A stretch of 64,000 nt of DNA. Source: Anthoceros angustus. Its lineage: Eukaryota; Plantae; Anthocerotophyta. Within the stretch, counting starts at the first letter, position 1, and each line of letters begins with the position of its first letter. Location: positions 1,054,001 through 1,118,000 of the forward strand of contig MU008163.1 in assembly GCA_010909165.1 (NCBI GenBank), written 5' to 3'. The notes below the pieces were generated by a model. That model made no database searches, was not told the DNA's origin, and was given only the letters and a program-made list of their open reading frames with translations. Of the stretch, positions 12,481 through 37,786 are shown piece after piece. The position numbers and the translations under genes are program-made.

Positions 12481-13490
12481 CAACAACAACAACAACTTTA
12501 TTTATGTCCACTAAGGGTGGAAGAACCATCATGGGACAGAGATAGTACAGCGTAAAAGAGGTTAAAAAACCGAGTACACTTACGTACGTCTGAACTAGAG
12601 AAGCAATACATGTGAGGCAGAAAAGAAGGCGAAGACTAGGAGTCCAACAAGGACTGCCGAAGATCAAGAAGCTCAGAGAGACATAGTCCAGAGAGCCTAG
12701 GAATGTGGAAAGAGAAAAATCTGCGCAGCGAGAAGCCGGCACACTAAAAAAGAAGAGAATAACGAGATCGAATATCGGCATAGGCGGGACAATAAAAGAG
12801 GAAGTGTGATTGAGATTCAGGATCCAAGGAGCAAAGCTTGCAGATCCTATCGTCTTGGGGAGGGGTAGGCTTGAGCCAACGGTCGGTCTCAATCCGGAGG
12901 TGGTGGGAGCTAACACGAAATTGACCTATGAGTGTGCTGGAGTTTGAAGGAAAGGGGAGGCGAGGTAGCAGGCGGGGTAGGAAATTTACGGAGGAGGATT
13001 AACTCGGAGCTCGTCTTTGTAAGCGGAGTCTAGAAGTGAGAGAGGAAGAGGGGACGGTGAGGCGAAAGTATCTTAATTTAAGGGCCTATGAGTGGTTGGG
13101 GGATGTGAGAAAGGGAGTTGGGAGGAGAGGGCCAAGCGAGTCGAAAAGGTTCAAACTCGAATCTTCTAAGCCGGTTGGCGGCTTGAGAAAGCCAAAAAAG
13201 CTTGTGGGTGGGTATTGAGCGGAGGCGGAGGACTTAAAGGCAAGGAGGAGGTAAGGGGATCCAAAATGGGATTAGCAATATCAAGGAGGTGGAGGCGGTA
13301 AAGAAAGGATGAGAGGCGAAAAATGCCATCAAGTTCGAGGGAAAGGCGCAAATTCGAGAAAGGAGGATGGGTAATGGAGTGAGCGCTTACAAGCAATGTG
13401 AGCGGAGAAAGGAAGATTGAACCCTTTCCACCTTCGCCCAAGAAGAAGGGGAAAGATCTGGGCCCCAAATTTCAGCGCCATACAAGGCGG
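12481..13490 (-). mobile_element. 5'-truncated non-LTR retrotransposon (LINE, RTE-like) 3' end
   Basis: Minus frame reads FRVSSHHLRIETDRWLKPTPPQDDRICKLCSLDPESQSHFLFYCPAYADIR (C-terminal CCHC finger of ORF2); ends in AATAAA followed by (GTT)5 at 12481-12502. 5' boundary approximate. Confidence 0.8.
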
Positions 13491-15138
13491 AGGGAATTAC
13501 CATAGTGTTGAACACCTGCTTCCGAAGATTGATATCCTGAAGATTCACTACTACAAAACATATGGCTTTTTAATGCAAAATATAATGTAACAATGACGCA
13601 TAGTGGCATGGAATCACGTGTGGTCCTTTTAGCCAAAGCGTTATAAAATACATTATAATGAACTCGATATTCCTTACTTTTTAACGTGGCAACCTTACCG
13701 GTTGCCATGGAATGTCCGGTGGCCGGGTGGTGGGCAAGTTATCCGGTGCAGCCCCGGTATGCCTATAACCGGGTATGGTATGGGCGGCCAGCGGACGGGT
13801 CCCCAGTTGCCACCGTCGCCCCGTTCGTGGGCCCGTTGTGCGGTTCGTGCCGGGCACCGGTCTGGCCCGACCCGTCATAGAATCTCGGGTCACCGGGCCA
13901 GACCCGTTTTCCCTCTTCCCCGCTGGCGGTTGAATTCAAAAACTGGCTTCTTGGTAAGAGCGTATTTGACTGTCCTGGTTTGACCGTCCAACAACATGAT
14001 GTCAGGCGGCTGTTCATTGGTGCGCAAACACACTCCATGATGGTCCTTGATTGGTGAAATAGATCTAAAAATGGTGGATGTTCATTGGTGACTGCACAGT
14101 CAATTCTGATTGGCGTTCTGATAATACCCTAGTTGGCTTTACACCGCGAAAACCATGCCCTTCACGCTTCAAGACTGTACTGATTGAATGTGTCTGACAA
14201 TGCTTTCAACCGGATTTGAAATTTGAACGGGTTTCTACAAGCTCATTTATGCATTGATTAAACTATAATATTTGTTAGTCGTAATTAATAATTACATGAA
14301 ATCGTGATTACGGTAAAACCGTACGCGCACTAATCCACGCTCACTAGTTCTATGCATGCGAAGCGAAATGGTGGCTCGCCCCTTCGACCTCTTCATGCGG
14401 CCCCGCCTCCTTCCTCCCATCACGCTTGCGCCGACTTTGGTTACCTCCTTCCAAGCGGCGAACAGGTGGTGCATTGGCCCGTCCCTGGTCATTGACATCC
14501 CCCTTTCAGAAACAGTATGTTGACATGGATGGCAGAGCGCAAACAGTTTTAAATTACGCTCAAGTTCTAACGAATGGACAGAACAGAAGTGCTAGCATGT
14601 CGTCACTCCTTACTTCCTCCGGTCTTTCAGTATCGATGCCCCTCGCATTCGGCAAGGGGAATCAAGCATCGACCGCATGCCCCAAACTAGATATCAGATA
14701 TTGCAGCCTCAAAAATACTAAGCTTCTCCACGACTTCATAGTGACACAGAAATTAAAACTGCGCATATGATGGTCTGTACTCAACGCCATGCTCAATTGA
14801 TTTTTTCGCCTCGGAGGCGAAATCTTGTGAAGGGGGTTAATATCCGAACCCCCTTCCGTGAAATGAAAACCCCCTTAGCACAATTCACACAGTCCCGAAA
14901 TACGCGTTTTGGCTCTTTTTTAAAAACGGACGACCATGTTCCAACGAGTAGGAATTGAGAAAAACTCTTATCGCACAACAAAGACATGAAAAGCAGAGGG
15001 CGACCGGCCGGCGCCTTTTCATTGATTCTTTGGAACATGGGAATCAAGACATCAATTGCCTCAATGCAACGGGTCCATAAGTGATTGCGAACTAAGCGGC
15101 GGATGCACGCATGAGATCACTAAGCCTACTCCCTACGG

Positions 15139-18100
15139 CTAACTTGGGACTCGTCCGGGGTAGAGCAAACTCGAATCCATCACAATAGCAGTTGAATCGC
15201 TCCACTTCCTCTTCATCGAAGCTGTCGTTCTCCCCAAGGCCCTAGTGTCTTCGTTTAGTCTTGTCTCGTCGTCGTCAGGGGTCGTGGAAGGCTGCCAAAC
15301 GCTATCCAAGGATTGCTGTCCCTCTGTCAAAAGTGCTCCAGTTTTGGTCTTCAGCCTTACGCTTAAGGAAACAACCTGAGCTTGCAGGGAGTCCTTCTCG
15401 CTGATACACACCTCCTTTGCCCAGAATTGCGCAAGTCCTCTGCGGTGGGCGTCAAATGTCGATTCTTCTTGACATCGTAACCTCATGCCCGAAATCCTTT
15501 GTGCAATATATCCTGCACACCTCAAGTCAGCTTCTATAGCAATACAATTCCGTCCGCATAGTAGAGCCGCCAGTAACGTTGTCCCACTCCCGGGCATACA
15601 TCCAAAACCCAATCTCTCGAGAAGGTTCGGATAAGTTCATCATAAGGCCCGGAGGCCTCGGTATGGGCAAACCACCGCCTTGTCGTGGGACATGTACACT
15701 GTTTCTTCACAACCGTATCGTGAGCGATCACGACCTCCCATTGTTGAAAGTGCCGTGCATGGCATTGGGCATCATTGGAACTCTATCCCTGTGAACCCAT
15801 CTTTCATTCCCCAACCCACCGTGACATATTCCACGGTTTGAACCCACCTCATTGTTCATGTTGGTCTTGTCCCATACAAATGAGACCAAGCCCCTTTCTT
15901 GCACCACCTTCGCATGGACTCCCCGACGGTGTGAGCCTCCTCCACACCATGCATGACAATCATTCTCAACTCATCGGAAGTTGTTTTCTCCGCAAAAGCT
16001 CGCAAAGGTGTCCATCATCTGCTTGTCAACACGTTTGTCCAAGGGCCCAATTTGAAACCCCCTTGGAACGTCCATCACCAGAAGTGTGTACTGGCGTCCT
16101 CTCAGAAATCCACGCATGTCTGCCAAATCTCGGCTTTCCACTTGGTACTGCACTTGTTTATCCGAGGAGGGCACACTGAACACCTCCAGTCCCTCCTCAA
16201 GGTCCTTGTCCGCTAAAGCACGCTGCTCGTCCTCCAGCCCTTTCCAATTGTTCACCTCAAAAATAAAATGCTGAAAGGCATCTGGAAGTTTGGACAAGAC
16301 CTCAATGTCCTTCAGTTGCTGCGAACCACAAGTTTGTTAGTCCAAAGTGGGAAAGAACCGAATGGAGGGCGCCGGCCGGCCGGCGCCCTCCATGACCTTG
16401 CGTACAGGCATGGACAAGAAACTCACCTTTCCAGCAAAAGCAGTTTGAAACCGCGACAGCATCTGGTCTGTGGAATGCAACGGATATTCCTCTCGGACCT
16501 CCTCAAATGAAGAGCACCCCAGGTGCTTGACCATCGCCACTTGTATGACATGAAACTTCTTCCGCAGCGTGATCTCCTCATCCATGCCCTTCAAATCAAT
16601 CAGGCCAGTTAACACCTTTTCTGTCGCTGTCACCAGAATTTGCTGCCCGCACTCTCCAGTATGCCTTGGAACGATTTCCATGGCTTTGCCAACATGTCCT
16701 TGACTTCGTACACTCCATTTGCTTCGCCTCTCAACTGCTTCCCTTTCCCTTTCTTGCTTGTTCGGTAGATGCTTCCGCTCCGGAGTTCTCCAGCCTCCCA
16801 CTTGAAAATGGAGTCCACATTGGCCCATACCTTTCCTTCACCTTGGCAATGCATAAAATGTGTGCGGTTATCCACTTTGTTACGCTTATACACATCGTCT
16901 TGGCGCCCTTCATCATCCTCAATCGCCCAAGCACCTTATGATTGTACTTCCATGCCATTGTCATCTGCTCCTTCTCGTTTGCTATCAAAGCTCATCTCTT
17001 AAGTATCGGACGCTCAATGAAGTTCATCTTCTTCCGCTTTGTCCCATAGTGTTGTGTGATGGCAAGGACTCGCATTTACGGTATAGTAAGCCCGCAATAG
17101 ACATGCGCTTCAACATTGGAACCTCTTCTTCCGGTGATATATCGCATAGATGTTTCATGGTTGCATAAGTGTGGTTCCCACCAAGAACCCCATAACATAT
17201 TTTTTCGCCCGCCATCTCTTCCATCCAACTTCGAGGTCATTGCACTCACTTGGATCAATCATACATAATAGTGGCATACACCTCCTCTATCCTCCCTTGA
17301 AATAACTCGGCGGATAATTGGCCCATGCCTCTCAACCCTGCGAATCTGCGCATCCGGCGTAATATGCGAAGCTGGTCGTAAGTTCTCCAATTTCACTAGC
17401 ACTGTCTCCATGACAACCTTCTTTCCGTGTGAATCCCTTAGGCGAGTGAGGGGTGCATCCATCGCGTCGCAGCGTTCTTCATCTGTCAAAATATGCACAT
17501 TGGGAATGGCACCAAACACTTCCTCTTGTGCCGACGCCCTTTTTGATTTCTTTTTCTTCCTCCTCCTCCGTGCTTCCACTGCCGGGTTTCTTCGCACCTC
17601 GGAATCCAACACCGCAGCAGGCGCTTGCCTTGAGCGCCTCGGTCGTCTCTATCTCCTATGGCGAGGCGCGGCCGGCCGGCCGGCGCCTCTTCCTCCGTCC
17701 ATACCGTGTCCCCGCACCCACTTCCTCCTCTGTGCCTCCAACGTCAGCACCTCTTCCACTGCGGTCCAGTGGAAGGGCTCTTGTGGATGGAGGTATGCGG
17801 CGCCCGGCCGGCCGGCGCCCGCTATCTCCTTCCAGGCCCGGATAAACCGGTTGGGATCCGGAGTGGCCAAGTCCGAGCCCCACTCTTCGCCTGCGGCGCC
17901 GGGCCACGGCCGCCTCCCCGGCATTCACTACATCGTGTGCACACTCATAGATGGCCCATGCTGCCGGGTAAAATTGCCGCATCCCTATGTTCGTCCCTCC
18001 CCGAGACTTCATCGGAATGTCCCACGTCAGAATCGGGCCCTCTTCCTCATCGGATGGGCCAAGTTCGCTCTGGGCTGTTGCTCGCACCGCCTCTTCAACC

Positions 18101-18978
18101 ATTCTTTGATGTGCTGCGCACCCTTCTCATCGGCTCTCTCCTATGATCAATGACCGTGCTTATCTTCCCACAGATTGCCCTTATAAGGGCCATTCCTACC
18201 AAAGGTGGGCGGAAAACAAACAAACAAGTTGAATGTTAGTCATCAAAGTCGGAGGGTTTCGCATGTCGTTGTTGGAAACTTACGTGTCGGCATGCATTCA
18301 TGAACTCTTCCACTATTCGAGGTGCACATTTTTGGCGTTGAATCCTTGGAGGCCGAGAACATAAGACCTGTAAACTCGGGGTCTGGATGACGGCATCGAA
18401 CTCGTATGGCACTGGTGGTGCACAATAGCGTGAACTCCGGCTCCCCTCGTTCATGTCCATGTTTGCCCAGACACCCTTGCTCTACGATTTAAAGCCCCGA
18501 TACCCCATTATCCGTAGTTTGAGCAAGGGGTCCATGCCGTTTTCAACCTCCGGTGCGGATCACGGACTAGCATCCAATCCTTCTCCACAATGACAGTAGG
18601 GTCAATCTGGCCACCCAGTCTGCGGATGTGCACGGTCTCCTCATAGCTGAATGGCGACGGAATTGGTGCATGCACCGGATGCTTTGAAGCCTTGCCTCCT
18701 TCCTTCCTATCTCCTTGCCCGCCAGCTGCCTTTGTTCTGCTTGTTTTCCCCGAAGACATGCTCCCGGATTTTGCTTGCCCAGCAGAGGCTATATGGCCCC
18801 CCACACCTCCAGAATGTGCGGCATGCCCTCCCAAACTTCCTTCCACAGCCTTCCTCTCGGCGCGGAACCTCGTCTTGCGATTTAGCGGATGTCTTCGTCG
18901 AATCGCTTTGCCTTCTTCTGCCGCCGCGGCCGGAGGATCGCAAGCCGAGTCCTTCTTGCTCCGCCTTCCGCTCGCCAT
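15139..18978 (-). CDS. Multi-exon gene: N-terminal basic region + ParB-like (GGNH) domain + beta-class N4/N6 DNA methyltransferase (frameshifted as sequenced), copy A
   Basis: Minus-strand order: QIRRV..YGVLGGNHT (~17190); GT-AG intron 16426-16319 with CTAAC branch point; LLVMDVPxG (motif IV-like); SFVWDK; PPGLMM.LIRTFS; DWVLD..GSGTTLLAALLCGRNCIAIE (motif I). Catalytic motif before SAM-binding motif matches the N6_N4_Mtase fold. Linkage of the 5'-most exon (18978-~18282) is inferred. Confidence 0.8.
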
Positions 18979-20389
18979 CTTTAAGAATGAACCCCGCAGA
19001 TCACAAGACATCAAATTTGGAAGGCGCAAACAATTGTTTCACATGGAAGTAGAACGAACCTCACTCGCACACCCCGCCGATTGATGCACCTGAGGAATGC
19101 CCGGCTCCTGTCTCCCCAACCCCGAGCGCGCCCGTGATAGCCGCAATCCCAGGCCAAGGGAGGATTCGTGGAATTGTGGACGGACACCTCCTCCAAATCG
19201 GGCAACACCGCCAGCAAGACGCCCTCACTTCTCCTCAAGTGGAAGTGCGCAACGCTCCACCGTGACGGCAAGTGGCAAGAGAAAACAAATAGTAATTAGG
19301 GTTTCCTCCCAACTGGTATTTATAGCCCAAAAACATGCTCAGATTAACTTATGCCATATATCCATATACCCCATATAAACCACGGATATGAACCATAACC
19401 CTATTGACTTGGGTGGTGGTAGGCACACTCAATGTGGACAATAAAAGCGGAGGACGGCGCGATATGCCGTTAGATATCCGTATCGAACTCCATCATGTTG
19501 TCGTTATTACGGAGGAACATAATATCCTACCCATCTATGCGCGACGCCTATCCATAAAGACAATGGCCATCTTCACCATTTTCGCCATCGGAGGTCTCTT
19601 CCAAGACCGCCGCGATGTGGTTTCAACGACGCGGGCGAGTGTGGTTTCAATCGACGCTTCTACAAGTTGTGCGATACCATGTTGCGCCTCACCCACACAC
19701 CTAGCGAAGAGGTTTGAGTTCGCCCTTTTGGAAGGATTACTTGGTTTTCACCCCTATCTTGTTTTCGGATTCGAGTTCGCTTAGTGCATCCGGTTGCGGG
19801 ATGAACAATGGGAAGAAGGTTTCTCTTCACAATGTCAGCGTGTTTCCCGTAAAGTTGGAGAAGTGAGTAGACCTGTTGAACAGGCCACCACGTCACCTGA
19901 ACCTGGGCATCCCCGTCGAGTGCGTTTTGCCATTCCCGAAAGACGTGTTGATAATGAAGGTTGACGATGATTTTTTCCATATGGGAACTGGGACGCTAGT
20001 GTATCACCGTTGTGGGATTTTGATGCATTCTTCCGATATTGTTGTTCCAGACACGCGCCAAGACGCCGCCTCCGCCGCCCTGGGTGTTCCTCCAACACCT
20101 AGGAATTTGCATCGGTATGTCGCTGGAGGAAGCCCATCCAACCGACGCTCAAGCTTCCCGAATGGCGTGGCGTTCTCCCAGATACATCGACGCCGTGGTT
20201 TGTTTCTGCGGAGGCTGATTGCGTCCGCTCACCGGTTGAGGAAGGTCCCATTGGCGACAATGAAGATTCGAGCGTGTTTCGCCACCGATGCATGTCGTTC
20301 CTTCCATCCCAAGCCTTTGAGTGAGTCTCAAGGCTCCAACAAGGCGATTGTTATATCACGCAAGAAGAGAAGCTGGAGTGTCCAAAAAG

Positions 20390-23050
20390 CGAAGGGATAC
20401 AATGATGATTTCAAGAAGCCTTGTTGCATAAAAATGTGTTTGCTTGGGGAAAGCGCGATTTCAAGAGCAACGGTATTTCTTCGCATGGGGAGACAGAGCA
20501 GGAGACATATCTCAGCCTCTTGTTCACCCATGGATCCCGAGGTGATAGGGCGAAAGTGGTGACACATGTCATGGGGCGACTCTGCGCTTTGAAGGCTTTA
20601 GAAGAGTACATTGTCTTGGCCACAGGAGGTATGAGGAGCTAAAGAGCAGAGTCATTCGGGAATCACCTTGGGATGGATTTGAACCAAACCCGAAGGCACA
20701 GTCGACGTATGCGATGGATGCCCTTTCGTGGATGGACAACGCCTTCACGTTTATGGCCGAGCGGCTGCCAAACTTGGATGTTTTTAATCTGCCCGACACG
20801 TATACAAAGTTGGAAATATGGACCTTGTACAAGCGTCAGTGCGAAAACTCTAACACTCGCTACGTCAAGTACCCATGGTTCTTGAAATTGTGGAGAAGCA
20901 ACTTCCCAACAAGAAATCAAGTCCAACAGTTTTCAACATGCTCGCTGTGTCTCGAAGAGCACTATCGAACACAATGCACAAGGAAGATCAAGGTAATTTG
21001 CACCAATGTGTCCTCCATGAGGTTGTTCACCGCTTGGATTTGCTTGACTACCCGATGGAGCGGATGTGCTCTTCCAATACCACTGTTCTCATATGAGATG
21101 CATGTACGCATGTTCTACAATGTTTGTGTTTGGTTTCCAAACGGTGCGCTCAACAGCTGCGCGCGCCCGGTATTTAGTGGTTTCCACCACGGAAGCCGCT
21201 TGCTCACTCCCTCCCAATCGAGAGGCAAGAGCCGGCCGCCTTCCCAAATCCGAAATGTAACGGGGGCGTGCGCCCGGCCCAAATCGGGAACGAAGCGAGA
21301 TTGTGGGCGCCTCGGCCGCCCCCCGCCCCACTTTATCCGCCATGTATCCCCATTTGGATGAGCGTCGCAAATAAGCATTCTGCATGTGAAGAAGTTTCCT
21401 GTCGGCGATGTCTGCTCATTTGGAGGGCCTAACGGATGCCGTTTTGAGGATTTTGATATTTCGACTAGGACATTTGTTTGTGGCAGAGAAATTTCAGTGC
21501 TTTGGAAGCACACCGCGTGCGCCCACCGGAGCGGGAGAAAATGTCCAAACACAGAGCAAGAGCTATGTGGAGCCACATAAGTATATGCTACTATCCATAG
21601 ATGGAATGGACCAAAAAGACAGATTCCTCATCTTCTCCGGTACGAAAAACCTCGAGAGGAGTGTCGATTTCACCACGTGGTTGGGTGTATGATTCACAAC
21701 TACACGCAAGCGAGAGCCTATTTGCATTATGCGAATTTAACGACGCAACTGACGATCACCATCATTCGTGACGTTATACATAATTACGAGGGGTCCGCCA
21801 AGAGTTTTGTATCCAATGGACAACACATGGGGAGAACAAGAACCAGCTTTTGCATATCCGAACATGCTTGTTGATATGGGTACTTTTGAAAAAGTGAAAG
21901 TGGGATTCCTTTTGGTCGGGCATACGCATGATCAAATCGACGGATGTTTTCTTGCTTCTCCAAAAGCTTGAGACATAAAGAGGCTCACACCCCCGCATTG
22001 TCGAGATCTTGATGCATGTACACTCCGTGAGGTAAAGATATTGAGTGGCGACTTTCGGTCATATGTGTGGCCTATTAGACAAGGCCGAGAGGCCTCACTT
22101 ATGGGCGGTAAAGAGATTGAACAACTTATCGTTCCAGCACCAATTTAAAATAACCCGTGAAGAGAAAGCGGACCGCGGTTCGTGATTGCTATCGGAGCAA
22201 GATTCCACCTCGCCACAATGGGAAGCGGAAGGGGTTTGAGTTTGAAATTTGTCCTTCCGACACTATAACAATTTCACCTCACCGCGGTCAAGGGATAAAA
22301 AGGAACACAGTGACATTATCACCAATCGCAGCTGCCCATCTTAAGGATGGTCTTTCGAACTTAGGCCTTATGTGACATCACAGGAGTTTTTATGGTGGGA
22401 AGCTTTCTGGTTGGACCAAGAGAAGATTGTGTTATTGTGCAAAACAACATTGGCCTTGTGCTACGTAATCCTTGGAAATGGTACTCAAGATCGGAAGTGG
22501 ATGCAAACCTCTCCATGTTCCGGATGTGGCGTCTTTGGAGGAGGCATTGCTAAGGGACCTCCACAACGAGATATGTATTTGGGAGCATACCAAACACGGG
22601 AGGCAACAGAAATGGAACGGTGGAATGGTGATATCGCGGAAATAAAGGCAGGGATGTTTGTTGCGCCGCGACACGATACGCATAATGCACTTTTGGATTG
22701 GCAAGGTAATCTTGCTCAATTGCATTCGCCACTTCCTTGTTCATTGGTACGTAATCAACATACGAGATGCATAAGGAAGGTACGTGAAGAATATCTTAAT
22801 CGGAGGGATGCCACGAGCTGCGAGCAATGCGGAAAAGGGGAGCGAAATCCATCCATCAAAAATATCCAAAAGGTTTTTGTTCACGAAACTGTCATCCTCT
22901 ATTATGGGTTCACATTGACTACGGAGACACTTGTACTGTAGATAAGAAGGCAATCAAAGAGAAGTTCATTGCGTTGCGAGGCTTCATTCAACCAGTGAAA
23001 GTCCCACCGAGGATAGTGAAGATGATGGTCATGATGCCGGACCAAGATGA
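20390..23050 (+). CDS. DUF7869-type RNase H-fold DDE/D transposase (Sola/Chapaev-like), copy A, frameshifted
   Basis: KPCCIKMC; FLKLWRSNFP..FSTCSLC; YMLLSIDGMDQK; VLY..DNTWGE; MLVDMGTFEKVKVGFLLVGHTHDQID; probable intron ~21.1-21.5 kb. Ends approximate. Confidence 0.78.
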
Positions 23051-25039
23051 TGGAGTGCCCGAGAAGAGTAGAAAGCCCTCTCGAATGTTGTGTCATCTTG
23101 CATGGGATCTTGGGAGGCTATGTGCTCCGTGTTGCTCGAAGACATATGTCTCAAAAGAGTGTAGGCCCATGATAGAATATTGGTTGTGCTGCCTCAGTAT
23201 ACCTCAGTAGACTTCACATGCTATAGAATTTTCGATGTGCAAGCCATTTCCACTGAAGCGGGGACATGGAGGAAGTATGGTGTAGTTAATGGCTTGGCAT
23301 TTAAGCATATGGCGTAACACATGTGTAGCCCGCCGGCATGTTTGTGTGCGATGACACGGAACTGGGCGCCACGTGTATGCCGATTGTAGTCTTTGGGTTT
23401 TAACAATGTGATTATATTCTTGGGCTCAATTTATGGTGTGCTGAAGCCACCCACTCACCCCACACATATAGTCTTTGTGTACACACACGAGCAAAGGCTG
23501 CTACTACCCCTTTCCCAATAGGTCGAGCCGTAGAACAGGGCCCCGGCGCGCCCTACTCCTCAAACATCCTTGGCCCCCCATCAGGGTTCAGCTCATCCAC
23601 GATCACCGTCCTTTTATGAATGTTAAGGGTGTTTTGGCTAGGAAGACCAGAAGGCGTGTGAATGGTCCTTCACATGGGTCTTATATGCACCCAAAATAGG
23701 GTTACCTCTTGCACCTTAACCCCTTCACCGGCAAGAAATGAACCTCATGTCAATGCTTCACACGAAAGTTCACCCTTCTTTTCTGCCCTATATTCATTCA
23801 TACCTCTATAACCACGAGTTGCGGACCCATGTCAAACCCCCTTCAGGGGATATTTCCCTTGAAACCCCCTTCCTGAATATTCACCCCCTTCACAAGATAT
23901 TGTGTTCTCCCCAACCCCAAGCAAGATTGCCTACCTTTCCTCTCATCGCACTCCGTGTGATCCGCTTGTTAGGATCTGGTGGTGGAGGAGATGGAGTCTG
24001 TCGTGTGTCCAACTCCCTCGCAGCACCTAGTTCGTCATCTGAATGGGAAGCCACTATCTCCGAAGGCGCACCTGCAAGTCCAATGAGTAGACTCTGATGC
24101 ATGAGCACATAGGCGAGCCAACGGATTGCATTAAACATGAAACGGTGATTGCTTACTTCATACCTTCCTTCGCTAGAGAGGCCGGAAAGCTTCAATGTCT
24201 TCCATTCCATGCTCCTTGCCTTCTTCAAGTGTGGGCATCTTGTGGAACTTGTGGTAAAAACTTCTTGAAGTCCGTGGCCCCCTCGTCCATAGGGGTTGCA
24301 CCGCACCTTCATACTTAGCCACCCGGCCTGCTGCCTTCATTTGTTGTGCCCTTGGCCACTCACCGTTGTTTTGATCAAGCACTGCACCGAATTGATTTCG
24401 CACCACGCCTCTTTGGACACATTACCTAGGCGCAAATGTTTTTCAGAATCACCACGTCTCGAAATCTGCATAACTTCACCGGGCTAGTGAATGAATTTTT
24501 GGTCGAGACCTGGGAGAATTGCTTGTTGATGAAATCTCGGTTAGTAGCTGGGAAAACTCTCACGAATGATGTCAACGAGTTACGTGCGCAGCTCCTTGAA
24601 TGCTCGACCATGGTTTCAGAAAGTCACGTGTGTGCACTAGCTCAGACTCGTTTAAAGCAGGGGCCTTGCTCCATGTACCAACTTCCCAAACATATCATCC
24701 CTAGCTACTTTACGGGCATGTCGCATCCTCACTACACACCGTCGCCTCCGCCAAAACCGTGGCCCTCCCATGCAATTTCACACAAGTCTGAGCACATCTT
24801 CAAGGTGTGCACTGCGGAGGACCTCCTGCTGTGGTGTGTGCACTCTCCCCTCTCCCGCCTCACCTCGCCATTAGGGAGGAACGTTGCTTCCACATGTTCA
24901 AATGTCCTGGCTCAAACCGCATGCCCATAGCTCCCTCACTGACCAAACCATCCAACCTTGGTGTCATGGCACCTTCATTCGTCTCTGCGTGTGCCTTGAC
25001 CCGCATGGACCGCAATCATCGAGGTGCACCCGACCCTCC

Positions 25040-25726: not shown

Positions 25727-26372
25727 CCATGGGTGCATGCTGCACTCAGCCCTATCGACATCAAGCATTGCACCATCCTTTTTCCCTCCTTACATACTGA
25801 CTGCACGCAAATGTGTTCGCACATGTGACAGATCTGGACAAAAGCCGCCATAACGGCCGAGGTGCATCGGCAAATAACGCCCGGTGGGTACTTTCACGCT
25901 TTTGGGGGCGTTGCGTCACCATCAACCCTATGCCAACTACAAATCGCTCGCCATGACCGTGGTGATGGCAATCGTATTTTGACTGCTTTGGGTGCCTCCT
26001 AAAGGCACGAAACGATTATATAATCAACACCATAATATTTGAACCGGCTGGAATATACGAACCCGTCAAAACCCGGACCAAATTGGGTTCCCCATCCACC
26101 AGAGTCCGCAAGTTTAGTGCTGTGGTTTGATCCCGCTTTGTGGGTGCTTTCACACGAATGTGGGTATGTTGGTGCATTCGGACCTCTCGACGGCACCCAT
26201 TTAATGTCTTATAGGTGTGAAACGAGATCTACGGATATTTTGCAGCCGTCAATGAAGTCATCCTTGACAAAGCGAATAACAATGTCACTCATAGTTAAAG
26301 AAGGAGCAGCCGGCATGCCGCCTGCCTTAGTTCTAACCATGCGGTTATGGTACTTTCAAAACTAAACTAGAC

Positions 26373-29300
26373 TCACTTCCCTCGAGATTCTCGGCTTGAG
26401 GCCGTGCTCGGAGGCATTGTCCCGACACGCTATCTAACACAACTTCCGTCCTTCGGTCGAGCATCCTCGGGATCCTCGAAATTGTCGTTTTCGACCATAG
26501 CATTTCGATATCGACGCATCCTCCTTGCTCTTCTCAAATAGTCGGGATGCCACAATGCAGATAGGGTTTCTGGCGATCATCTATAAGATCTCCGCCTTCA
26601 TCCCGCTCAACCCAAGTGGGACTACTGGCACAGGATGCATCCTTCTCGGACAAGCTCAATTCTTTTGCCCGACTGGGTGGGGCCTCGGCGGTGTGGCTCA
26701 TGGGTCAACTCCTCCTGCGTCCCAGAAACTTCATAGCCATGAATCCTTTGCGGAATGAACTCAGCAGCGTTTGTCAACCTCCACGAATGCAATTTCGCCA
26801 CAAAGGAGTGCTAATGTCGTTGTTCCACCCCCGCACATGCATCTAATATCCAATCTCCTTCTCTGGAAGTTCTTGATCAACTTCATCATTAGACCCGTGG
26901 CCTCGACACGGAAACAACCACTTGTCCACATGTATAATAACTTCTTCACCACGGCCGTGTGCAACTCCCCATTATTGAAAGAGCCCCGCAAGGTATTCGA
27001 CATGGACACCTTTGTCTTCTTGCTCGCGTCACCCACCCCACGGTTGATGTACTCCATGTCAAAGCCTCCTTGGTCATTGTGCATATTAGTTTTGTCCCAA
27101 ACAAATGAGACCATGCCTCCACCGCACACCACTTCCTCATACTCTCGACAATATGCGCTCTTCCACACCATGCATTACTATCATTACGATCTCGTCGCAC
27201 ATTGTCATGTCATGGAAGGAATGAAATATGTTTGCCATTTCTTTGCTCAAGTTTGACATCATACTTCCCTTGTTGAATCCCAGGGACATCCATCACCAGT
27301 ATACTTGACTCCAAAGAAACCCTCTCATTTCGCCACATCTCACGCACCACTTGATACTTCACTAACTCCTCTTTGGGCACTAAAGATTGCAGCCCTTCCT
27401 CCATGTCCATGTCCGCAAGTGCCCTCTGCTCATCCTCCAGCCCTTTCCATGTGTGGACCTCTAATATAAAAGCACGGAAATCTTCGGTAGCTTTTTGGTC
27501 TTCAACATCTTTAACTTGCAAATAACACAAAACAAGTGAGGTTGCCGAAAGTCGATTGGGGACAATAGGGAGGGAGCATGCCGCCCTCCAATAGTTCTAT
27601 CTTGGTAAGAACAAATAAACTCACCTTCCCTTCGAGCGGAAATCGCAATGACTTCATCCGTTGAGTGCACGGTACTCCTTCCTCACCATCTCGAATGAAT
27701 TGCAGCCTAGATGCTTCGCCATAGCCACTTGGATCACATGTAGTTTCTTCCAAGAGTGATCTCTTGGCCATACCATTGAGGTCTATGAGACTGTCAGACC
27801 TTCTCGGACACCGATCAACATTTTTGGCCGCCTCACCCGGTGGAATACCACGAAAACTTCGCCAAGGCTTCCTTGCATGTCTTTTGGCTTCACAAAACTT
27901 TGGTCCACCGACTTCGCCTCATCCGCAGCCTGCTTCCCTTGCTTTTCTTGCTTGTTCTCTGCAACATGTTTGGCTTGTTCGGCAATTCCATGGCCTCCCA
28001 CTTCGTGAAGATCTTATCGACATTTTCCCACACTCTCCCTCAAGTTTGGCGATGCAAAGGATATGTGTGCGATTGTCGACCTTGTTTTGCTTATCGCTCA
28101 TCCTCTCCGGCCTCATCATCATCTATCAAGCCCAAGCACCTTATAGGTTGAACTTCCATTCATGGTCATATTGACACCATCCTTTTTGCTATCGCAACTC
28201 ATCTCAAGTACCAACTTGCTCAATGAAATCATCTTCCTCCGCTTGTCGACATGGTTGTGGTGTGGCGAACCCTCATCTCCGTAAAGTGAGCCCACAATAG
28301 ACATGGGCTTCCATCCATTGGAATCCTTGATGGAGATATGTCTCGGATGCTTCATCGTGCATAGGTGTGATTGCCCCGAGCACTCCCATCACATACTTCT
28401 TGGCTCTAAACTTATTCCGCCTATAGATTGAATGTCGCATTGGGGTCAATCATGCACGATGAGGCACCTTCCTCAACTCTACCTTTCAAATAACTCGAGC
28501 TGTAGTTGGTCCATGCTTCATCCACAATCCGAACTGCATCCGGAGAAGAAAGGATGGTGCCTTAAATTCTCTACCAAGAACTGTTTTAACCACTTTCTTG
28601 CGTAGAACTCTCGATATTCGCAAATAATCTTCATCACGGATGGAGGCCTCTCCCCCCGCACAACATGCGGATTTCATCGTATCGCAGCCCGCTGCCGCTT
28701 TCCTTCTCTCTTCCTCTCGACCTCCCCCCCAACCGGCTTGTCGAACCGCTTGCGCTTCCACTACTCGATCGCCCACCATATCAGCCACGCCGCATGCGCG
28801 CCCTCCTCCCATGAGGGCGCCGCCCACCCCCCTCTGGCCGGGAGGCGCCGCATGCCGGCGCCTCTCCAGGGAGGCGCCGGCATGCGCCCTCCATCCCCAT
28901 GGCGGGCGCGCCGCATGCCGGCGCCCGCCTCATCCAAGGCTGGCGCGCCGCATGCGCGCTCTCATCCCGGGGCCAGGGGCCGGCATGCCGGCGCCCTTCC
29001 GCCCACCCCACTGGTGGCCGCTCGCACATCCAGGCCGATGCCGCCTTCGCAGAGGGCGGAAGGGGCCGATGCCGCGCCCTTCCTCTCCTCCCATGCCTTC
29101 ATCCCGGATATAAACCAGCGCTGAGGGGTGCCCAACCCATGTGTTCTCCCACCGGCAGTACACTGTCAGCGACCCATGTCTTCACAGGATTGTAAGGCAC
29201 CGTGGCACCATGGAGAAATCAAATCATCCTCCTCACCCCATTATCACCATCCTCCTCCGCATCATCCTGTTGGCCAAGCAACTCAGATAGGGCCATCCTC

Positions 29301-30190
29301 TTCATCCGAGGGTCCATACTCGCCTCATCTCCTTCCAATTCATAATCGACCCAGGTCCTTCTAAAGACATCTCCGGTGATTGATGATTGTAATCACCTCA
29401 CATAAGCATCGATAAAAATTCCTTGCATTACGCAAGAGTTAGAAGTTCCAAAAGTGTTTAGTGGATGCAATGATGTTCAAAACTTCAAAATCAATGACCA
29501 AAGACATGCACTTACAATCCGTGGTCGAAGAGCTTCCCGGAATTTGAGAGACAGTTCACGTGGCTCACACTTTTTGCTAACCAAGCCTGCTATGCTCAGC
29601 ACGAACACACTGTAGTCGACCGACTCCACTGGCAAAGCTTCAAACCCATAAGGCTTCGAAGTCACCAAGACCTGAATATCCGGATCTCCTTCCGCTTCTA
29701 TTAACGTTGCCCATACCACAAATCCAGCCCTGGCTCTCTGATTCGGCAAAGCACCGTTGTGGCCATAAATCCATAATTTCAACATTGGTGTCCACACCAC
29801 ATTGTCTTCATCGTTCTCACTGTCAAAGCCTTCCTTCTGACAATCTCATCAATCCGGGTTAGTGTGTCTGCAATTGAACAGTCTCCTCAAGCGTAAAGGT
29901 AAGGATTAGAATTTGCGGCACTGTTTGTGAGTTTGCCATCTCGATTTCCCTCCGCCTCTCCTTTGTGCTCACCGATCCTCGGATCCGAAAGTTGGCCGTC
30001 GCCTCCAACATCGTGCTCGCACGCCTTCCAAGCAGCTGAATTGGAAGACCAGTCGGCGAACTGTCCATGATCTCCTCCACGGCTTTGCGTGTGATCGCCT
30101 TCTTCCCTTTCTCTTCCGACGCTTTGGTTTGTCCACATGCGGCGGGCCTTCTTCTCCCTCCTTGTCCTTCTTTGCTGCGCCACTTGCCAT
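26373..30190 (-). CDS. ParB-like + N4/N6 DNA methyltransferase gene, copy B (frameshifted as sequenced)
   Basis: Colinear with copy A: GVL.GNHTYA (~28375), KVDNRTH, GK|GTGAG intron donor at 27624, WKGLEDEQRALADMD, ILVMDVP, SFVWDKTNM, GLMMKLIKNF, GGGTTTLALLCG..VEVDKRC. Confidence 0.78.
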
Positions 30191-30945
30191 TGCCACGATC
30201 ACAAGCAACGATGCATACGGAGACACCAAATCTCCTCAAGCGTAAAGGTGAAGGATTAGAATTTGGCGGTACTCTTACGTGAGTTTGCCATCTCGATTTC
30301 CCTCACGCTCCTTCGTTGTGCTCACCTTTTGATCCGGGATCCAGTTCGGGGCGTGCGCCTCAACATCGTGCCAGCATTCGCCTTCAAGGTGCGCCTTGAA
30401 TTGGAAGACCGGTCGGCTCGAACTTTGGTGTCCATCCACTCCACGCCCGGTCTTTGCGGTGTGATCGCCTTCTTCTTCTTCTTGGCGTTTTGGTTTCTCC
30501 ACATGCGGCGGGTTTCTTCTCCCTCCTTGTCCTTCTTTGCTGCGCCACTTGCCATTGCCACGATCACAAGCAACGGATGCATACGGTGAGACACCTCCTT
30601 CAAGCGCGCGAGGGTTGCGCGCGCCTCCACAATCACGAATGGCGCGGCAATGGCCTCCACTCGTGACCGGCGCTTGGAGGCGCAATTCGAGGCCTTCCGG
30701 TTTCGGAAGTGGAGCGCAACTCGCGATGAACGCGGTGTGAGCCGTGAACGCCTCCATTAAAAGGAAATCGGCCTAAAAATCAGGTTAAATAGGACGGTGA
30801 GTGAGCACCGTATGTCGATGTTTGTTTTCCACTTACCCTATTTGGTGTGGCACCTTTGCACATTTTTCACGGTGGCCCATGTTTTCCAACCGTGTTGCAC
30901 TTGCATACATTAAAGCCTTCGATCCCTAACGCAAAAGCCGCAACT

Positions 30946-32626
30946 TTATGACCGCCAGTGAAACGGGCGTCGGATCCGCACCGTAGATAAATCTTCTCCG
31001 CTGAGTGCTGGAAAGATGCCACTCGAGGCATCCGCGCGATAGTTCTCGATGTCTAATATGATTGTGCCGTGATTTGTCCCTCCTTGTTCTGTGGTGCCGA
31101 TCGCCACCGCCGACGTCTCTTGCCCATGCTCCACTCCACCCATACCGATGAAGACAGAGGTAATTTTCATAAAGCGCTCGCCCACGCCCGTAGAGTCCCT
31201 TGTCACTGGAACGTTGTTCATAAATGGGTCATGCGGTTTGATCGCAGATGGGGAACTTGTTGGCATATCGAATGCCTCGCCTCCAAAGAGACCCATGCGC
31301 AAAAAGGGGCAATGATCATTTGGCCAAAGCGCTCAACTTTGCCCGAAGGGACCGAGTCAATGCTCGGACAACCTGTGTATCGAACACAATTATGTAGACA
31401 AGCTGGAAATTTTCCGAGGCAAGCGGATGGCGGAGGTAATCGCTGGATGATGGCTTCACCTTGTTCTCGTGAAAATCGTATGCAGGCTCGGGATGGCGAA
31501 GGACTCATAACCATTCTCGTGCACCCCTATGTGCCACCGACGGAACTTGCGGCTATGGAACTTAGCCCGAGAGACGAGATCGCCCCGAGTAAATGAGCGT
31601 GCCATGAGGTCTTTCGCCTCGTGTGGAGTGTTTGGTGCATGGGGGGGATATTGCTGGCGATAACGTTCCCCATCCTCCTCCAGATTCGTCATCTGTTTGG
31701 CCAAGCAACTCCGGTATAGGGCCATCCTCTTCATCCGAGGGTCCATACTGCCTCGTCCTCATCTCCTTCCAATTCATAAGCCCTCCTTCTAAAGACATCT
31801 CGGCGGTGATTGATGATAGAAGTTGTTATCACTTCACACAAGCATCGATAAAAATTCCTTGCATTCTGGCAACGAGTTAGAAGTTCCAAAAAGTGGTTAG
31901 TGGATGCAAAGATGTTGCAAACCTTGAAAAGCATTGGCAACCAAAGACATGCACTTACAATCCGTGGTCGAAGAGCTTCCCGGAATTTGAGAGACAGTTC
32001 ACGTGGCTCACACTTTTTGCTAACCAAGCCTTTATACTCCGAACACCTTGTAATCTTGAGCTCGCAAAGCTTCAAACCCATAAGGCTTGAAGTCACCAAG
32101 ACACGAATATCCGGATCTCCTTCTTCTATGTTGCCCATACAAATCCAGCTCTCGATTGCAAAGCACCGTTGTGGCCATAAATCCATAATTTCAACATTGG
32201 TGTCCACACCACATTGTCTTCATAGTTCGCACTGTGTCAAGCCGGTCCTTCTCTCGGACAATCGTGTCATCAATCAAGTTAGTGTGTGCGCAATTGAGCA
32301 GTCTCCTCAAGCGTAAAGGTGAAGGATTAGAATTTGGCGGTACTCTTACGTGAGTTTGCCATCTCGATTTCCCTCACGCTCCTTCGTTGTGCTCACCTTT
32401 TGATCCGGGATCCAGTTCGGGGCGTGCGCCTCAACATCGTGCCAGCATTCGCCTTCAAGGTGCGCCTTGAATTGGAAGACCGGTCGGCTCGAACTTTGGT
32501 GTCCATCCACTCCACGCCCGGTCTTTGCGGTGTGATCGCCTTCTTCTTCTTCTTGGCGTTTTGGTTTCTCCACATGCGGCGGGTTTCTTCTCCCTCCTTG
32601 TCCTTCTTTGCTGCGCCACTTGCCAT
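30946..32626 (-). CDS. Extra paralog in copy B sharing the MTase gene's N-terminal region but with an unrelated C-terminal part
   Basis: MASGAAKKDKEGEE...KKCEPRELSLKFREALRPRI...GPSDEEDGPI duplicated from 29290-30190, then diverges at ~31640; 32302-32732 is nearly identical to 30231-30661. Confidence 0.5.
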
Positions 32627-32809
32627 TGCCACGATCACAAGCAACGGATGCATACGGTGAGACACCTCCTTCAAGCGCGCGAGGGTTGCGCGCGCCTCCA
32701 CAATCACGAATGGCGCGGCAATGGCCTCCACTCACCGGCGGGAGGCGCAATTGCCTTCCTTGGTTTCGTTTGCGGGCGGTGTGGTGTCTTGAAGAAGACC
32801 GAGGCGGAC

Positions 32810-35693
32810 ACGGTAGGATTTCAAACCGTGTTGCAACAAAGTATGTATTCAACGACTTTCAAGGAGGGTTTCAAGAAGAGAGGCAAAGGTTTCCTTATGT
32901 TGGGAAGGTCCGAGACATACTAGAGACCCTTGTAAGGCCTCGACCATGGATCGAAAGGAAAAGACATCTACTTTCAAGGCACCGGTTCCAATCAAGTGTC
33001 GAAATCCTAAGGGTGTATTGCATAGGGTCGGAAAGGTATGAGGAGGTGAAGAGTATCGTTGAATTCACCATGGGATGGTAGCAAACCCGGGTGAAATCAT
33101 CTCATGCATTGGGCGCTATAGCATGGATGGATGCAACATTTCGCAATTAGCGGCCGCCTAATGTTGAAGTCTACAATCTTCCCGACACTTTCACCAAACT
33201 AGAAGTGTGGACACAATACAAATGTGGCATGGAGCAAAACGGCAGATATTTCAGACGCTGCATTTACGAGACTATGGGGCGAGAACTTCAAGCGAAGATA
33301 CCCAAATCCAATCGATTTTCAACATGTTCTCGGCGCCGGTCTAAAGTTCAACATCCGGCAATCGGATCGCGATGATGGTATGCTCATCGCCGCACACCGC
33401 TTTCCGATATGGTATAAAGGGGCAAAGGTTGGGCGTCACGAGGTGGGCCATCCGATGACGACGGTGGTCAGGATGGTGGATGTTGACCCTTGGTCGAGGC
33501 ACGGTCGACGGCCCTTGGTCGAGGAAGGCGGGGCATGTTCTCTAGAATGCGCCAGGAGTGGAGGAGAGGAGCGCGGCATGCTCGGCGGGGAGGAGATGAG
33601 GAGGGCGTCGGCATGCCGGCGCCCTCAGGCGGAGAGGCATGCGGAGGGGAGGAGATGAGGGGCGCATGCCGGGGCCCTAAAGGCGGGGGCAGGCGGCCGG
33701 GGCCCGCGGGGAGATGAGGGCGCCGGCATGCCGCCCATGAAAATGGAAGGGGATGGGAAAAGGAGGAGGAGCGGGAAAGGGGTTGGGCGCCGCGCCATAT
33801 TGGTTGAAGAGCAGGGACACTTCGCCTTGACATTTGTGGCGCGGTTCGGCGCCCTAGCGTTGAGGACCATTGAGGGCCCTAATATATGGGACCACACAAC
33901 GGCCGGAACCCTAGGTTCGCTGCTTAGGTTGACCCTCCGAGGCGGTTAGGGTCGGTGCCTTGCCTCTACAAGGACAAAACCCTAGACCCAGACTTATAAT
34001 GGCGCCGACTTCTGCTCATTGCATTTGAAATGAGGCGTTAGTGGGGAGGGTCGGTCGTGAATGATGGTATATGTCCTCATGGACACCGACATGACATTTG
34101 GTTGTATGGCGATATATATCGGAGGCATTGAACAAACATCGCATAAAGCTTATGGAGGAGCGGAAGAAGTTGACAAAACATCGAATCTAAAAGGATACAC
34201 CGAGCCTCACAAGTACATGTTATTATGTATCGATGGTATGGATCGAAAAAAACATCTTTACCGATATACTTAGATGGCCTAAGGAGCTAAAGGAAGATAG
34301 CCGTGTTACCGTCCATGTGGTGGGGTGTATGATTCACAATCACACGCTCACGGCAAGGGCGATCTCGCACTACGCAAATTTGAACGATGCTAATTTAACC
34401 ATATGCATTATATTGTGATGTGATACATACGTATGTCGGCTTTCCCAAGGTTCTATATTTGCAACTGGACAACACACATGTCGGAGAACAAGAATCAACT
34501 GCTTTGCTTATCTCGAATATGCTCGTGGAGATGGGGACATTTGAGAAAGTGAAGGTGGGGTTCCTTCTCACACACATGACCAGTTGACCAAATGTTCTCT
34601 GTTTCTCCAAGCATTTGAAGCACAAAGAGGCCAAAACTCTTCCTTATGCAGGATATATTGACCAAGGCTCACGCCAAACCCGTGAAGGTCCCGACCGAGG
34701 TTCCGATCGCTTCCGCAAAAACAAAAGGGCTCTAAGTTTAAATGCGGTTCGCAAGTCAACAATCTATCATTCCAACACCAATTCAAAATCACGGGAGGAA
34801 AATCAGGGGTAAAGTTATTATCCGAGTAAGACGACCTCACCGTTATGGGAAATGTAAGATGGCTGGAGTTCTTGTCTTTTATTCCAAATGTCGAGATAGG
34901 ACCCACAACCGCTAGCTCTACGCCAAGGACAAGAAAGGCTGATGGAAAGCTCACCGCACGGGAAGGAGTAGAGCACTTAAGGAAGGGTTTGCGAAACTTT
35001 CCACATATGTTAACGCAGAGGAGGAGTGGTGGAATGACTGGAAGGATCAAGAGGAGATTGCAACTATAGTGGACAATAACATTGGCCTTGTGTTGAAAAG
35101 TCCGGAAGTGGTATGATAGATCTGCAGTAACTTGTACCGCCACCGCAGTTCCGAGGAGGCTATCTTGGACGAAGCCTTATTAGACGTCAACGGACATGTA
35201 CTTGGGTGCTTACCAGAGTGTGGAGAGACGGGAGCAAGAGGTCGAGCGCATGAATGGTGACATAACGGAGATTAAAAAGGTATGTTTATTGTCACCTTGT
35301 GAGGGGACACACACAGTGGCATTCGGTTGCAAAGGTGTTGAGTGTGCACCGACCGATGACCCATACCTGCATCGTGGCGAACCGAGCACACCGATGCCTA
35401 CGAGGGCAAGTATGTTTGAGAATACTTGGTCGACCGAGGAGGTAGACAATTTCATCTACCAACAAAGGTGCAAAAGCATGGAAGCCACCCAACGCTCGTG
35501 GTTGTTTGTACATAAGATACCATTGTGTACTATGGGTTCAATCTCACTTCTAGGAAACATCAGACTGGCGGATAAAAAGCTATCAAGAGAAGTTAAGTGC
35601 CCTCCGTCCCCATCTTCAACCTGCACTCCCTCGGTGGACATGAGGATGATGGTGATGACGCATTTATTCCACATGGAGAAACCGACGCCCTGA
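32810..35693 (+). CDS. DUF7869-type transposase, copy B, frameshifted
   Basis: DFKPCCNKVC; YNLPDTFTKLEVW; EPHKYMLLCIDGMD; KVLYLQLDNT; MLVEMGTFEKVKVGFLL..HTHDQ; GC-rich probable intron ~33.35-34.1 kb at the same place as in copy A. Confidence 0.78.
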
Positions 35694-37786
35694 GTCGTGG
35701 GAGGAGTGAAGGACCGAACGGCTCGACATATATCCCACTCATGGTCCGCTCCTTCCAAATTACGGCGCAACTCTTTTCCACACCCTTTGTGGTGGCATGC
35801 TTAAGCCCATCACGACAACATTTTCTCGTGGTCCGCTCCTATTGACACCCTTCATTTCACCGGCCCGCCATGACTTTGTTCGTTGGATTGCTTTATGGCG
35901 CCCATTTTCGTGAAACTTGGCGCTCTTTTCCAGCCGATACCATGTAATCGGGTTTTGTGAAGAGGAACATGGAACAGACAAGACAAGATTACTCCTGACA
36001 GCGGATATTAAAAAGGCCATGTTGGGCATATTTGTTTAAAGGGAATGGATAAGGGATTTCTCAGGTGTGAAGATGGGCGGATGCACGCCCACGGTGGTGT
36101 GTTTGCACACCCTTGTACACTTATATAAACAGCTCATTTTCTATACCTTCTTACCATAAATGGGAACCTTGCAAATCCGCCTGCTCCTTCACTATAAGGC
36201 GAATAATGTAAAGACTGTCGGGTTTCATTATCCCGCACAAAGGGAGTTTGAAATCAGACCAAGCAAACCCCATTGGCATGTCCCCACCATACCCTTGTTG
36301 GTGTGTGTGCTCCATGCAATTTTAAACCGGAATGTGGATTCGACCATAATTTTGAACACATTCTCCATGACTACATGCAGGAACGGCGATTTAGTGACCA
36401 TCCAGAACCCGGTTCAGCGTATATACATGCATAAAGCCGCTTGATGTATATTCCGCCGGTTCAAATATTATGGTGTTAATCCCAGCTGTGAACTACTTAG
36501 TTTAGGTATATCCACTCCTTGTGATTTTCCTTGACCACTCATCACACCGCTTGACAACTCGAGTGCGTCCTCTTGCATGCGCGATGCCTTGCTCCAGCTT
36601 GCACATGCCTTTGAGCACGCCATGGCCGTAACTCGTTGTCACGCTGGAGTTCTGGACACGTGGCGCTATCCCAATGTAACCCGTTTCCCATAAGAAGGAT
36701 GCATCGACCCCTCTTTTCCAAGCATTCACCGCCTCTTGCGCGATTCGTTCCCCGGCTCAGAGGTGTGGAATTTGGGCTTCTTCTCGCACCGTGCTCCCAA
36801 TTGGCTGCCCAGTCTCGAGTTTGGGAGTTTGCTTGTTGCCACTTTGTTGTCACTTGTTGCGCCACCACAACTTAAATCGTTTTGGCTTGTAATGTGTAGG
36901 GTGAGTTGCGATTAACAGAGGACCATGGCTCACGTGGGGCCAACATCCTGGATACCCTCCACATTACGAGAACGACCAGCATTTGACTCATCGCCGGGCT
37001 CCCCTCGCACCCCTTTCTCTCGCACCGATGGCTGCTCAACAAGCACCGCGATAAGCTTGAGCGTGAAGACGGAGTTGATGTTTGAAAGGCGGACAAGTGT
37101 GTCCGAGGGTGAGGCTGGGGGTTGTGGATTTCAAGGCATACCGCCTTCTCCCGAACCGGAAAAAGCCTTGGGCATCAAGAGACCGGATAGAGCGTGTGAA
37201 GGACGATGGCATTCACACACGCCGCAAGCGACCGCACCGCCTGGATTCGTAGAGCATTAGTGCCGTATGTGCCCATGGACATAGACAACGGGTTTAGGTA
37301 GGGGTTTGCATGTGGTATGATGCCATGTTTTGTTTTTAATGGTCGAACATGAGCCGTATGTTGGCGGTATGGGCCGGAGGTTAAAATGCACCCCCTACAT
37401 ATATTTTGTCATTAAACCGCCTGTGGAAACCCTTGCCTGAAACCCTCCAATATGAAATGGCAACAAAGGTGTGTGCCACATCCTCGAAACCTCACGGAAA
37501 TAGCGACAGCGGCCGCCTTGTATCTCTCGGCATTCCCTGGCTACTAGGCCATAGGAAGTGTAATGGTGGTCTCGCAAATGATCGGTGCACGCAATTTAGG
37601 TTGTGACATGAGTCCAATTGAGTCGGTCCGTAATTAATGATCCCATTCCACAAAGAAACATATTTTGACCCATTTATAATTATGTATTTACCTTGCACGG
37701 ACCCCACTAGTCGACATGCCGTTTTTCCTTTTCGACTTAACTATCCCACCTAGCATGTATTGGTGTGCATATCATCCATTGCCGCG

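Follow-up and report, generated by a model that had tools for sequence, protein, structure and literature searches.

A ParB-methylase cargo has already been published for algal transposons, as a candidate case of an element whose product binds and modifies the element itself. In Ectocarpus, according to the available text of PMC12477816, the 21.5-kb element Sola1-1_Ec32 has 282-bp terminal inverted repeats (TIRs), AACCG termini, and a 4-bp target site duplication (TSD). On the opposite strand it encodes a 1104-amino-acid accessory protein with ParB-like and N4C/N6A methyltransferase domains, for which the authors propose self-binding and self-modification, citing similar green- and red-algal proteins. 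In the red-algal Plavaka elements of Bostrychia, PAG2 combines an N6-adenine methylase with SET, PAG3 combines ParB with a 2-oxoglutarate (2OG) oxygenase, and inverted-repeat arrays lie beside the ParB-containing PAG3; the available part of this preprint states that binding and modification of an element's own DNA has so far been shown only for VANDAL (bioRxiv 10.1101/2025.02.11.637652). The VANC protein of Arabidopsis VANDAL transposons counteracts silencing and has element-specific, noncoding target motifs (PMC5735166, in the text available). The 64-kb stretch of contig MU008163.1 analyzed here (the window, to which all counts inside or outside elements refer) carries the design of the algal cargo into what is likely a land plant. 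Two transposons, elements A and B, each hold a copy of a gene that joins an N-terminal, probably ParB-derived half to a methyltransferase half. It is well supported that this is a real, spliced, and conserved transposon accessory gene, a variant of the recently described design and not a new kind.

Both elements are bounded by inverted arms (14822-14843 and 23877-23898 in A, 95% complementary; 26023-26048 and 36455-36480 in B, 96% complementary). The junctions of B read AATC/AACAC...GTGTT/AATC, giving a 4-bp target duplication. The right end of A, ...GTGTT, is followed by CTCC (target CTC(C)), and at its left outer tip the element end has given way to 9 nt that repeat the flank in inverted orientation. 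B thus has the AAC termini, TIRs, and 4-bp TSD of Sola1, and A has the right end only, its left tip being damaged. In one short-read contig, 14809 is followed directly by 23907, apparently the site without A; the shorter flank in it measures 20 letters. In each element, a plus-strand DUF7869 gene, a domain that we take to mark Sola-like transposases, stands head-to-head with the minus-strand methyltransferase gene. By its termini and TSD, as in Sola1-1_Ec32, the carrier is best classed as a Sola1-type cut-and-paste transposon, and the methyltransferase gene is almost certainly its cargo. Because copies A and B both lie inside TIR elements, a stand-alone, newly eukaryotised host gene is ruled out. 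The "eukaryotised module" of the first-pass annotation, made by a model from the letters, therefore gives way to accessory cargo, arranged as was reported in 2025 for the Ectocarpus element.

Two other carrier classes were considered and rejected. The Sola2 motifs DFAENY, SDG, and ATSHGK, as given in the available text of PMC3627910, differ by eye from SIDGMDQ, QLDN..ENKN, and GHTHDQID found here, and the carriers of the DAM-retrotransposon class are retrotransposons in the accessible part of its description (10.64898/2026.05.21.726589). A hairpin at the left junction of A (14804-14821) looks like a footprint left by excision or repair, unless it is a read artefact. Near both ends of A, at 14829-14856 and 23837-23891, lie short subterminal GAAGGGGG/CCCCCTTC repeats, candidate transposase sites that are separate from the GC-rich palindrome described below.

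The motifs of the accessory gene in A are scattered across three frames, the gene being broken by frameshifts. The first-pass annotation had placed QIRRV and GNHT upstream of the methyltransferase; their minus-strand positions are right (QIRRV, 17348-17334; GVLGGNHT, 17191-17168), although the two stand in different frames. The alignment of A with B suggests that the true reading after QIR is probably ...EAWANY... and not RVERHG, so only QIR is secure. The phase-0 GT-AG intron after GK, likewise proposed there, is supported and is conserved beyond A and B. In A (16426-16319) it reads GTGAGT...CTAAC...CGCAG, with the exon join FAGK/QLKDI; B has the donor GGGAAG/GTGAGT at 27624 and a garbled acceptor.

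A search of 1.84 billion representative proteins with P0001, a single-frame translation of A in which X stands for each stop, found four proteins (best E 7e-12), all from Logan assemblies. Their clusters gave four more, and P0010 and P0011 came from a profile search. In frameshift-aware alignments, 101 of 249 aligned residues are identical between A and P0006 and 88 of 262 between A and P0011 (for B, 74 of 214 and 72 of 246, respectively); judged from these alignments, the likeness of A to both proteins exceeds chance. Three of the four relative clusters pair run-off forms (P0002, P0003, and P0008), which enter unrelated sequence at the residue matching the donor of A, with continuing forms (P0006, P0007, and P0009) in register with FAGK/QLKDI; the fourth has a run-off form only. 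In cluster 3, the longest contig given for each of the halves P0008 and P0004 measures 16,193 nt, against 4,011 nt for the joined form. These pairs support the 108-nt intron. We infer that run-off and joined forms come from genomic and spliced contigs, respectively, although joined forms may be intronless DNA copies, and the spliced forms in three of four clusters suggest transcription in other organisms.

Copies A and B are 64% identical across 15392-17387. They were compared over 270 codon pairs anchored on the relatives, with stop codons and codons at most 3 from a frameshift dropped. Identity by codon position is 0.61/0.61/0.38, and nonsynonymous (pN) and synonymous (pS) differences amount to 0.38 and 0.78, giving a bootstrap pN/pS of 0.41-0.57; synonymous sites are saturated, and no dN/dS estimate is available. 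The comparison of A with B that the first-pass annotation had proposed thus points to divergence as coding sequence under purifying selection. In addition, 85 short-read contigs of run X1 match 581 nt of the methyltransferase exon at 80-100% identity, which suggests many variants in that sample and gives no copy number. Run X2 placed no contig here, which has no bearing on expression. Upstream of the gene in A, the weakly conserved stretch at 18031-18472 represents either further exons or a third gene. An internal duplication in B (29244-30705 and 31667-32768) spans the matching GPSDEE stretch, which there would be either an extra exon or a third accessory gene.

Other searches returned little. 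A homolog search with a 121-amino-acid piece and a PDB sequence search with alignment A1 gave no match, and relatives of 782-2230 amino acids were not found, which is weak evidence. A window piece queried against the ESM Atlas gave matches below 0.9 only, and phage and plasmid sequences yielded no meaningful match when window pieces were compared with them by tblastn. Pattern scans yielded one weak partial match in viral contigs and four in metagenome contigs, taken as chance, and none for P0011 or P0006.

The C-terminal half is, by sequence comparison, a beta-class amino-methyltransferase of prokaryotic type. PF01555 matches the window piece of A at E 0.0084. P0011 scores 30 bits against Pfam N6_N4_Mtase (cutoff, 26.7), weakly matches solved beta-class enzymes (best E 3e-4), and is grouped with PF01555 clusters in the ESM Atlas at 0.95-0.96. 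When a profile of P0011, P0004, and A was aligned to 29 prokaryotic beta-class methyltransferases, hhalign returned a probability of 97.8% over 204 columns. Motif IV lies N-terminal to motif I, which binds S-adenosylmethionine (SAM), as is the order in the beta class. Motif I/II reads DGCSGSG...AVDVD in P0011 and, across one frameshift, VLDVC.GSGTT...IAIEAD in A; together with the QKP region, it is kept in P0011 and recognizable in A and B. SAM binding by this half is accordingly a prediction from motifs.

The atypical motif IV noticed in the first-pass annotation is confirmed. A reads DVPRGF at 16072-16055 (B reads DVPG and is not callable further), and the D[VL]PRG of A, P0004, P0009, and P0011 aligns exactly on DPPYN in hhalign. 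Since it recurs in relatives from other data sets, the motif is a family trait and not a sequencing error; the DLPRG of the relatives rules out an artefact. In the available account of the N4CMT structure (PMC10406627), the target amine is held by the residue that opens motif IV together with the main chain of the first proline; the motif IV Tyr stacks on the base. The Asp is kept in D[VL]PR, and the backbone carbonyl needs no proline, as DAPY occurs in L115; the real change is Tyr to Arg. L115/L128 (G006:C7) is a phage-type ParB-methylase fusion with DAPY for DPPY, which shows that the second residue of motif IV varies in nature. The chances of catalysis appear evenly balanced, because the base-stacking Tyr is now Arg, yet the family retains the Asp and the second Pro along with the SAM motifs. 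As stated in the first-pass annotation, N4-methylcytosine (4mC) and N6-methyladenine (6mA) cannot be told apart from the sequence of the enzyme.

The N-terminal half is probably ParB-derived. By eye, its motif order (V.L..L.P, QIR, a hydrophobic strand, Y.[VM].GGNH..A, and V.A.V..GL...E...LA..HN) follows that of aligned ParB domains. At the position of the GxxR arginine, A reads GGNHT, B reads GNHT, and P0002 and P0006 read GGNHS (register by eye; the 35 reference ParB domains were picked by their G-x-x-R motif). If the ParB reading holds, the arginine that binds cytidine triphosphate (CTP) would be lost, with T in its place in A and B and S in P0006. The proposed phage origin finds no clear support: P0011 has weak matches in 256 phage records (best E 4e-6 among the 25 matches listed), mostly in the C-terminal motif I region, and a phage donor is not separated from a bacterial one.

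New here is a 20-bp palindrome, GGCGCCGGC-NN-GCCGGCGCC, that is confined to the two elements and has an element-specific center, CG in A and AT in B. When up to 3 mismatches are allowed, it has 5 matches against 0.03 expected, and 0 of 100 shuffles reach 5. An indel-tolerant scan locates 4 sites in A, 6 in B, none elsewhere in the window, and none in 30 shuffles. All occurrences of the exact half-site (11/11) fall inside A or B, which cover approximately 19.5 of the 64 kb. The sites lie in both arms of B and, in A, all in the left arm; the one in the middle of the intron is perfect in A (16368-16387) and degenerate at the same place in B. The palindrome of A contains no adenine, so that only 4mC could be the mark in A if methylation falls on the palindrome itself. 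With its own version of the palindrome in each element, the pair A and B amounts to a built-in specificity swap.

We lean slightly toward a chain in which the N-terminal half would bind the GC-rich palindromes of its own element, the beta-class half is predicted to bind SAM, and that half would mark or shield the element DNA against host silencing. We infer all of its steps, namely, ParB ancestry, palindrome binding, SAM binding, catalysis, and the anti-silencing outcome; the inverted-repeat arrays of Plavaka and the targets of VANC serve as analogies for the role of the palindrome. A more specific version appears improbable: an active amino-methyltransferase with a new D-x-P-R motif, guided to element-specific palindromes by a CTP-independent ParB-type reader, would write a private 4mC mark on copies of its own element against host 5-methylcytosine silencing, and protein and palindrome center would coevolve between families. 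Several points weigh against the chain. The relatives are known as protein sequences alone, and the palindromes could equally be transposase sites. The state of copies A and B, the changed motif IV, and the profile tests of the N-terminal half count against it as well, each in connection with an alternative discussed below.

The alternative that survives best is that copies A and B are decayed relics whose frameshifts are real, a possibility to which we give somewhat less than an even chance. It is independent of the other alternatives and concerns these two copies only, not the gene family. Aligned to the relatives, A needs 12 shifts and 2 stops and B needs 20 shifts. Both copies are frameshifted as assembled, and their intactness is not demonstrable; the damaged left tip of A and the internal duplication in B also fit decay. 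However, the assembly is rich in indels, and the ordinary genes of the window carry them too, with 14-18 gap bases per 1.6-1.9 kb separating the near-identical tandem 4CL-like copies. Short-read contigs of run X1 match the window with many gaps and few substitutions (a 217-nt contig on 17060-17275 has 1 other letter and 11 gaps), and they insert letters within the methyltransferase exon.

Alternatively, the methyltransferase half may be a dead enzyme that only binds DNA or flips bases, the protein assisting transposition in a structural role, for instance by pairing the palindrome clusters of both arms. The canonical motif IV, (D/N/S)PP(Y/F/W), is absent from A, P0004, P0009, and P0011, where Arg replaces the aromatic residue. 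Among 87 reference beta-class methyltransferases, most of which form one closely related family, 83 have DPPY, 1 has DPPW, and 3 have another motif. T or S at the ParB arginine position would fit loss of activity, and the presence of palindromes in both arms of B would fit arm pairing. We consider this alternative unlikely, given that motif I/II and QKP are kept in P0011 and recognizable in A and B, that the Asp of motif IV is retained, and that all four palindromes of A lie in its left arm.

It is a little more doubtful still, and independent of the other alternatives, that the N-terminal half is an unrelated DNA-binding or helical domain in which GGNH resembles the ParB box by chance. This would explain why the statistical tests for ParB came back blank. 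A profile of the 35 bacterial and phage-type domains scores 18.7 on A and 16.8 on B against a background of 16.8 +/- 2.0 (212 tiles), hhalign against ParB gives a probability of 0.3% and a score of 12.5 against 10.9 +/- 1.8 (maximum, 16.7) for 60 column shuffles, and Pfam and PHROG scans of the accessory-gene fragments and relatives found no ParB match. The AlphaFold2 (AF2) model of P0006 does not resolve residues 1-35 and is helical in the middle region, and a fold search with it matched generic helices and did not span the ParB region. These tests are weak, however, because for the first half of the domain they could draw on no more than two broken copies. The motif order still matches aligned ParB domains, hmmsearch and hhalign both set the HN of this half on the EN of ParB, and the Ectocarpus counterpart was called ParB-like. 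Of the ParB/Srx reading in the first-pass annotation, the motif order thus stands, together with the arginine loss if this is ParB, and the fold is unconfirmed. There is only a slim chance that the palindromes serve the transposase or a host factor as binding sites, with the methyltransferase a passenger that methylates broadly or serves the host like DN4MT1 in Marchantia sperm: beta-class 4mC methyltransferases are indeed expressed there in late spermiogenesis, in the available account (bioRxiv 10.1101/2021.02.12.428880), but DN4MT1 has TSPPY and consists of tandem host genes, whereas the copies here are both enclosed by TIR elements, and the intron of the gene itself contains a palindrome (perfect in A, degenerate in B).

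Table 1. Features of the window, with positions, strand, and supporting observations
Feature	Position(s)	Strand	Basis or remarks
Element A, ~9.1-kb TIR DNA transposon	14813..23906	.	Inverted arms, end sequences
Beta-class amino-methyltransferase exon in A, then divergent tail	15139..16318	-	DVPRG 16072-16058, WDKTN, motif I/II ~15614-15530
Intron in A, 108 nt	16319..16426	-	Phase-0 GT-AG, CTAAC branch-like site; contains perfect palindrome 16368-16387
Helical middle region in A (predicted), ends ...FAGK at splice donor	16427..16999	-	Helical in P0006 model
N-terminal ParB-like region in A (QIR, GGNHT, ...HN)	17000..17483	-	Motif order only; homologous to P0006 from VLGGNH on
Upstream coding stretch (GPSDEEEGPI), weakly conserved	18031..18472	-	tblastx, A versus B
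DUF7869 transposase of A (SIDGMDQ ... DN..ENKN ... GHTHDQID)	20549..23300, limits approximate	+	PF25273 E 3.3e-11; frameshifted
GGCGCCGGC-CG-GCCGGCGCC, four sites in A	14998, 16368, 17666, 17799 (span 14998..17819)	.	Candidate binding sites
Element B, ~10.5-kb TIR transposon	26026..36477	.	AACAC...GTGTT termini, 4-bp TSD AATC
Accessory gene copy B	26640..28650	-	64% nucleotide identity to A; intron donor 27624
DUF7869 transposase of B	32900..35700, limits approximate	+	PF25273 E 9.9e-9
GGCGCCGGC-AT-GCCGGCGCC, six sites in B	28844, 28873, 28905, 28976, 33604, 33719 (28844..33736)	.	Candidate binding sites
STIG1-domain and AMP-binding (4CL-like) genes, tandem array	1-9254		Copies 97-99% identical

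The surroundings of the elements point to a plant genome with several further repeats. A STIG1-domain gene (E 2e-18) lies near the window start, and STIG1 is a land-plant family. The AMP-binding genes alongside are presumably 4CL. Their array may reflect recent duplication or be partly an assembly artefact. Upstream of element A, at ~12400-13200 on the minus strand, lie fragments like a reverse-transcriptase C-terminal region, which we assume to be of the long interspersed nuclear element (LINE) type. Downstream of B, at ~36500-42500 on the minus strand, a frameshifted transposase-like sequence with internal repeats (38961-40231 and 40242-41494) has motifs that, to us, recall the EnSpm/CACTA type. 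Direct repeats at 43666-47267 and 53585-57268 (84%) flank reverse-transcriptase-like fragments near 49300-49750, and the sequence at ~43000-57300 is probably a long terminal repeat (LTR) retrotransposon.

The literature as available describes no such cargo in a land plant and does not mention DUF7869; Iyer et al. 2011, credited with the green-algal cases, may cover the family, which the accessible text of Iyer 2016 (PMC4738411) does not describe. Compared with Sola1-1_Ec32 by its published description and not by sequence, A and B share the TIR DNA transposon with AAC... termini and a 4-bp TSD, the accessory gene opposite the transposase, and the order of ParB-like domain and amino-methyltransferase. 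They differ from it in lying in a probable land plant, in their size of 9-10.5 kb, and in TIRs of ~26 nt. The D[VL]PRG motif IV and the element-specific 20-bp palindrome are described here for A and B. Plavaka elements, as far as described, likewise carry ParB-like and amino-methyltransferase domains with repeats near the gene, but their carrier is EnSpm/Plavaka and ParB and methylase are in separate genes. VANC is alike by analogy, as a transposon accessory protein with element-specific targets; by its published account it removes methylation, whereas the protein of A and B carries a methylase fold. It is also an unrelated protein in an unrelated carrier.

The position of motif IV ahead of motif I and the motifs QKP and D..GSG are shared with beta-class amino-methyltransferases (M.RsrI, DpnA-like M1.HpyAVI, TTHA0409, CcrM, and bdelloid N4CMT), and the ParB-first order is shared with phage-type ParB-methyltransferase fusions of ~420 amino acids. 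Unlike these, the accessory gene has D[VL]PR, a helical insert of ~190 amino acids separating its two halves, a spliceosomal intron, and GGNH[TS] for GxxR. The family-wide D[VL]PR raises the question of whether amino-methylation works without a base-stacking aromatic residue. Marchantia DN4MT1a and DN4MT1b, beta-class 4mC methyltransferases with TSPPY encoded by tandem host genes and active in sperm (bioRxiv 10.1101/2021.02.12.428880, in the text available), are also amino-methyltransferases of prokaryotic type in a land plant. Membership in the DN4MT1 type was rejected, as TSPPY there stands against DVPRG here, and neither a ParB half nor a transposon is described for DN4MT1 in that text. Alongside Marchantia DN4MT1, the accessory gene of A and B would give plant DNA a possible second origin of 4mC or 6mA.
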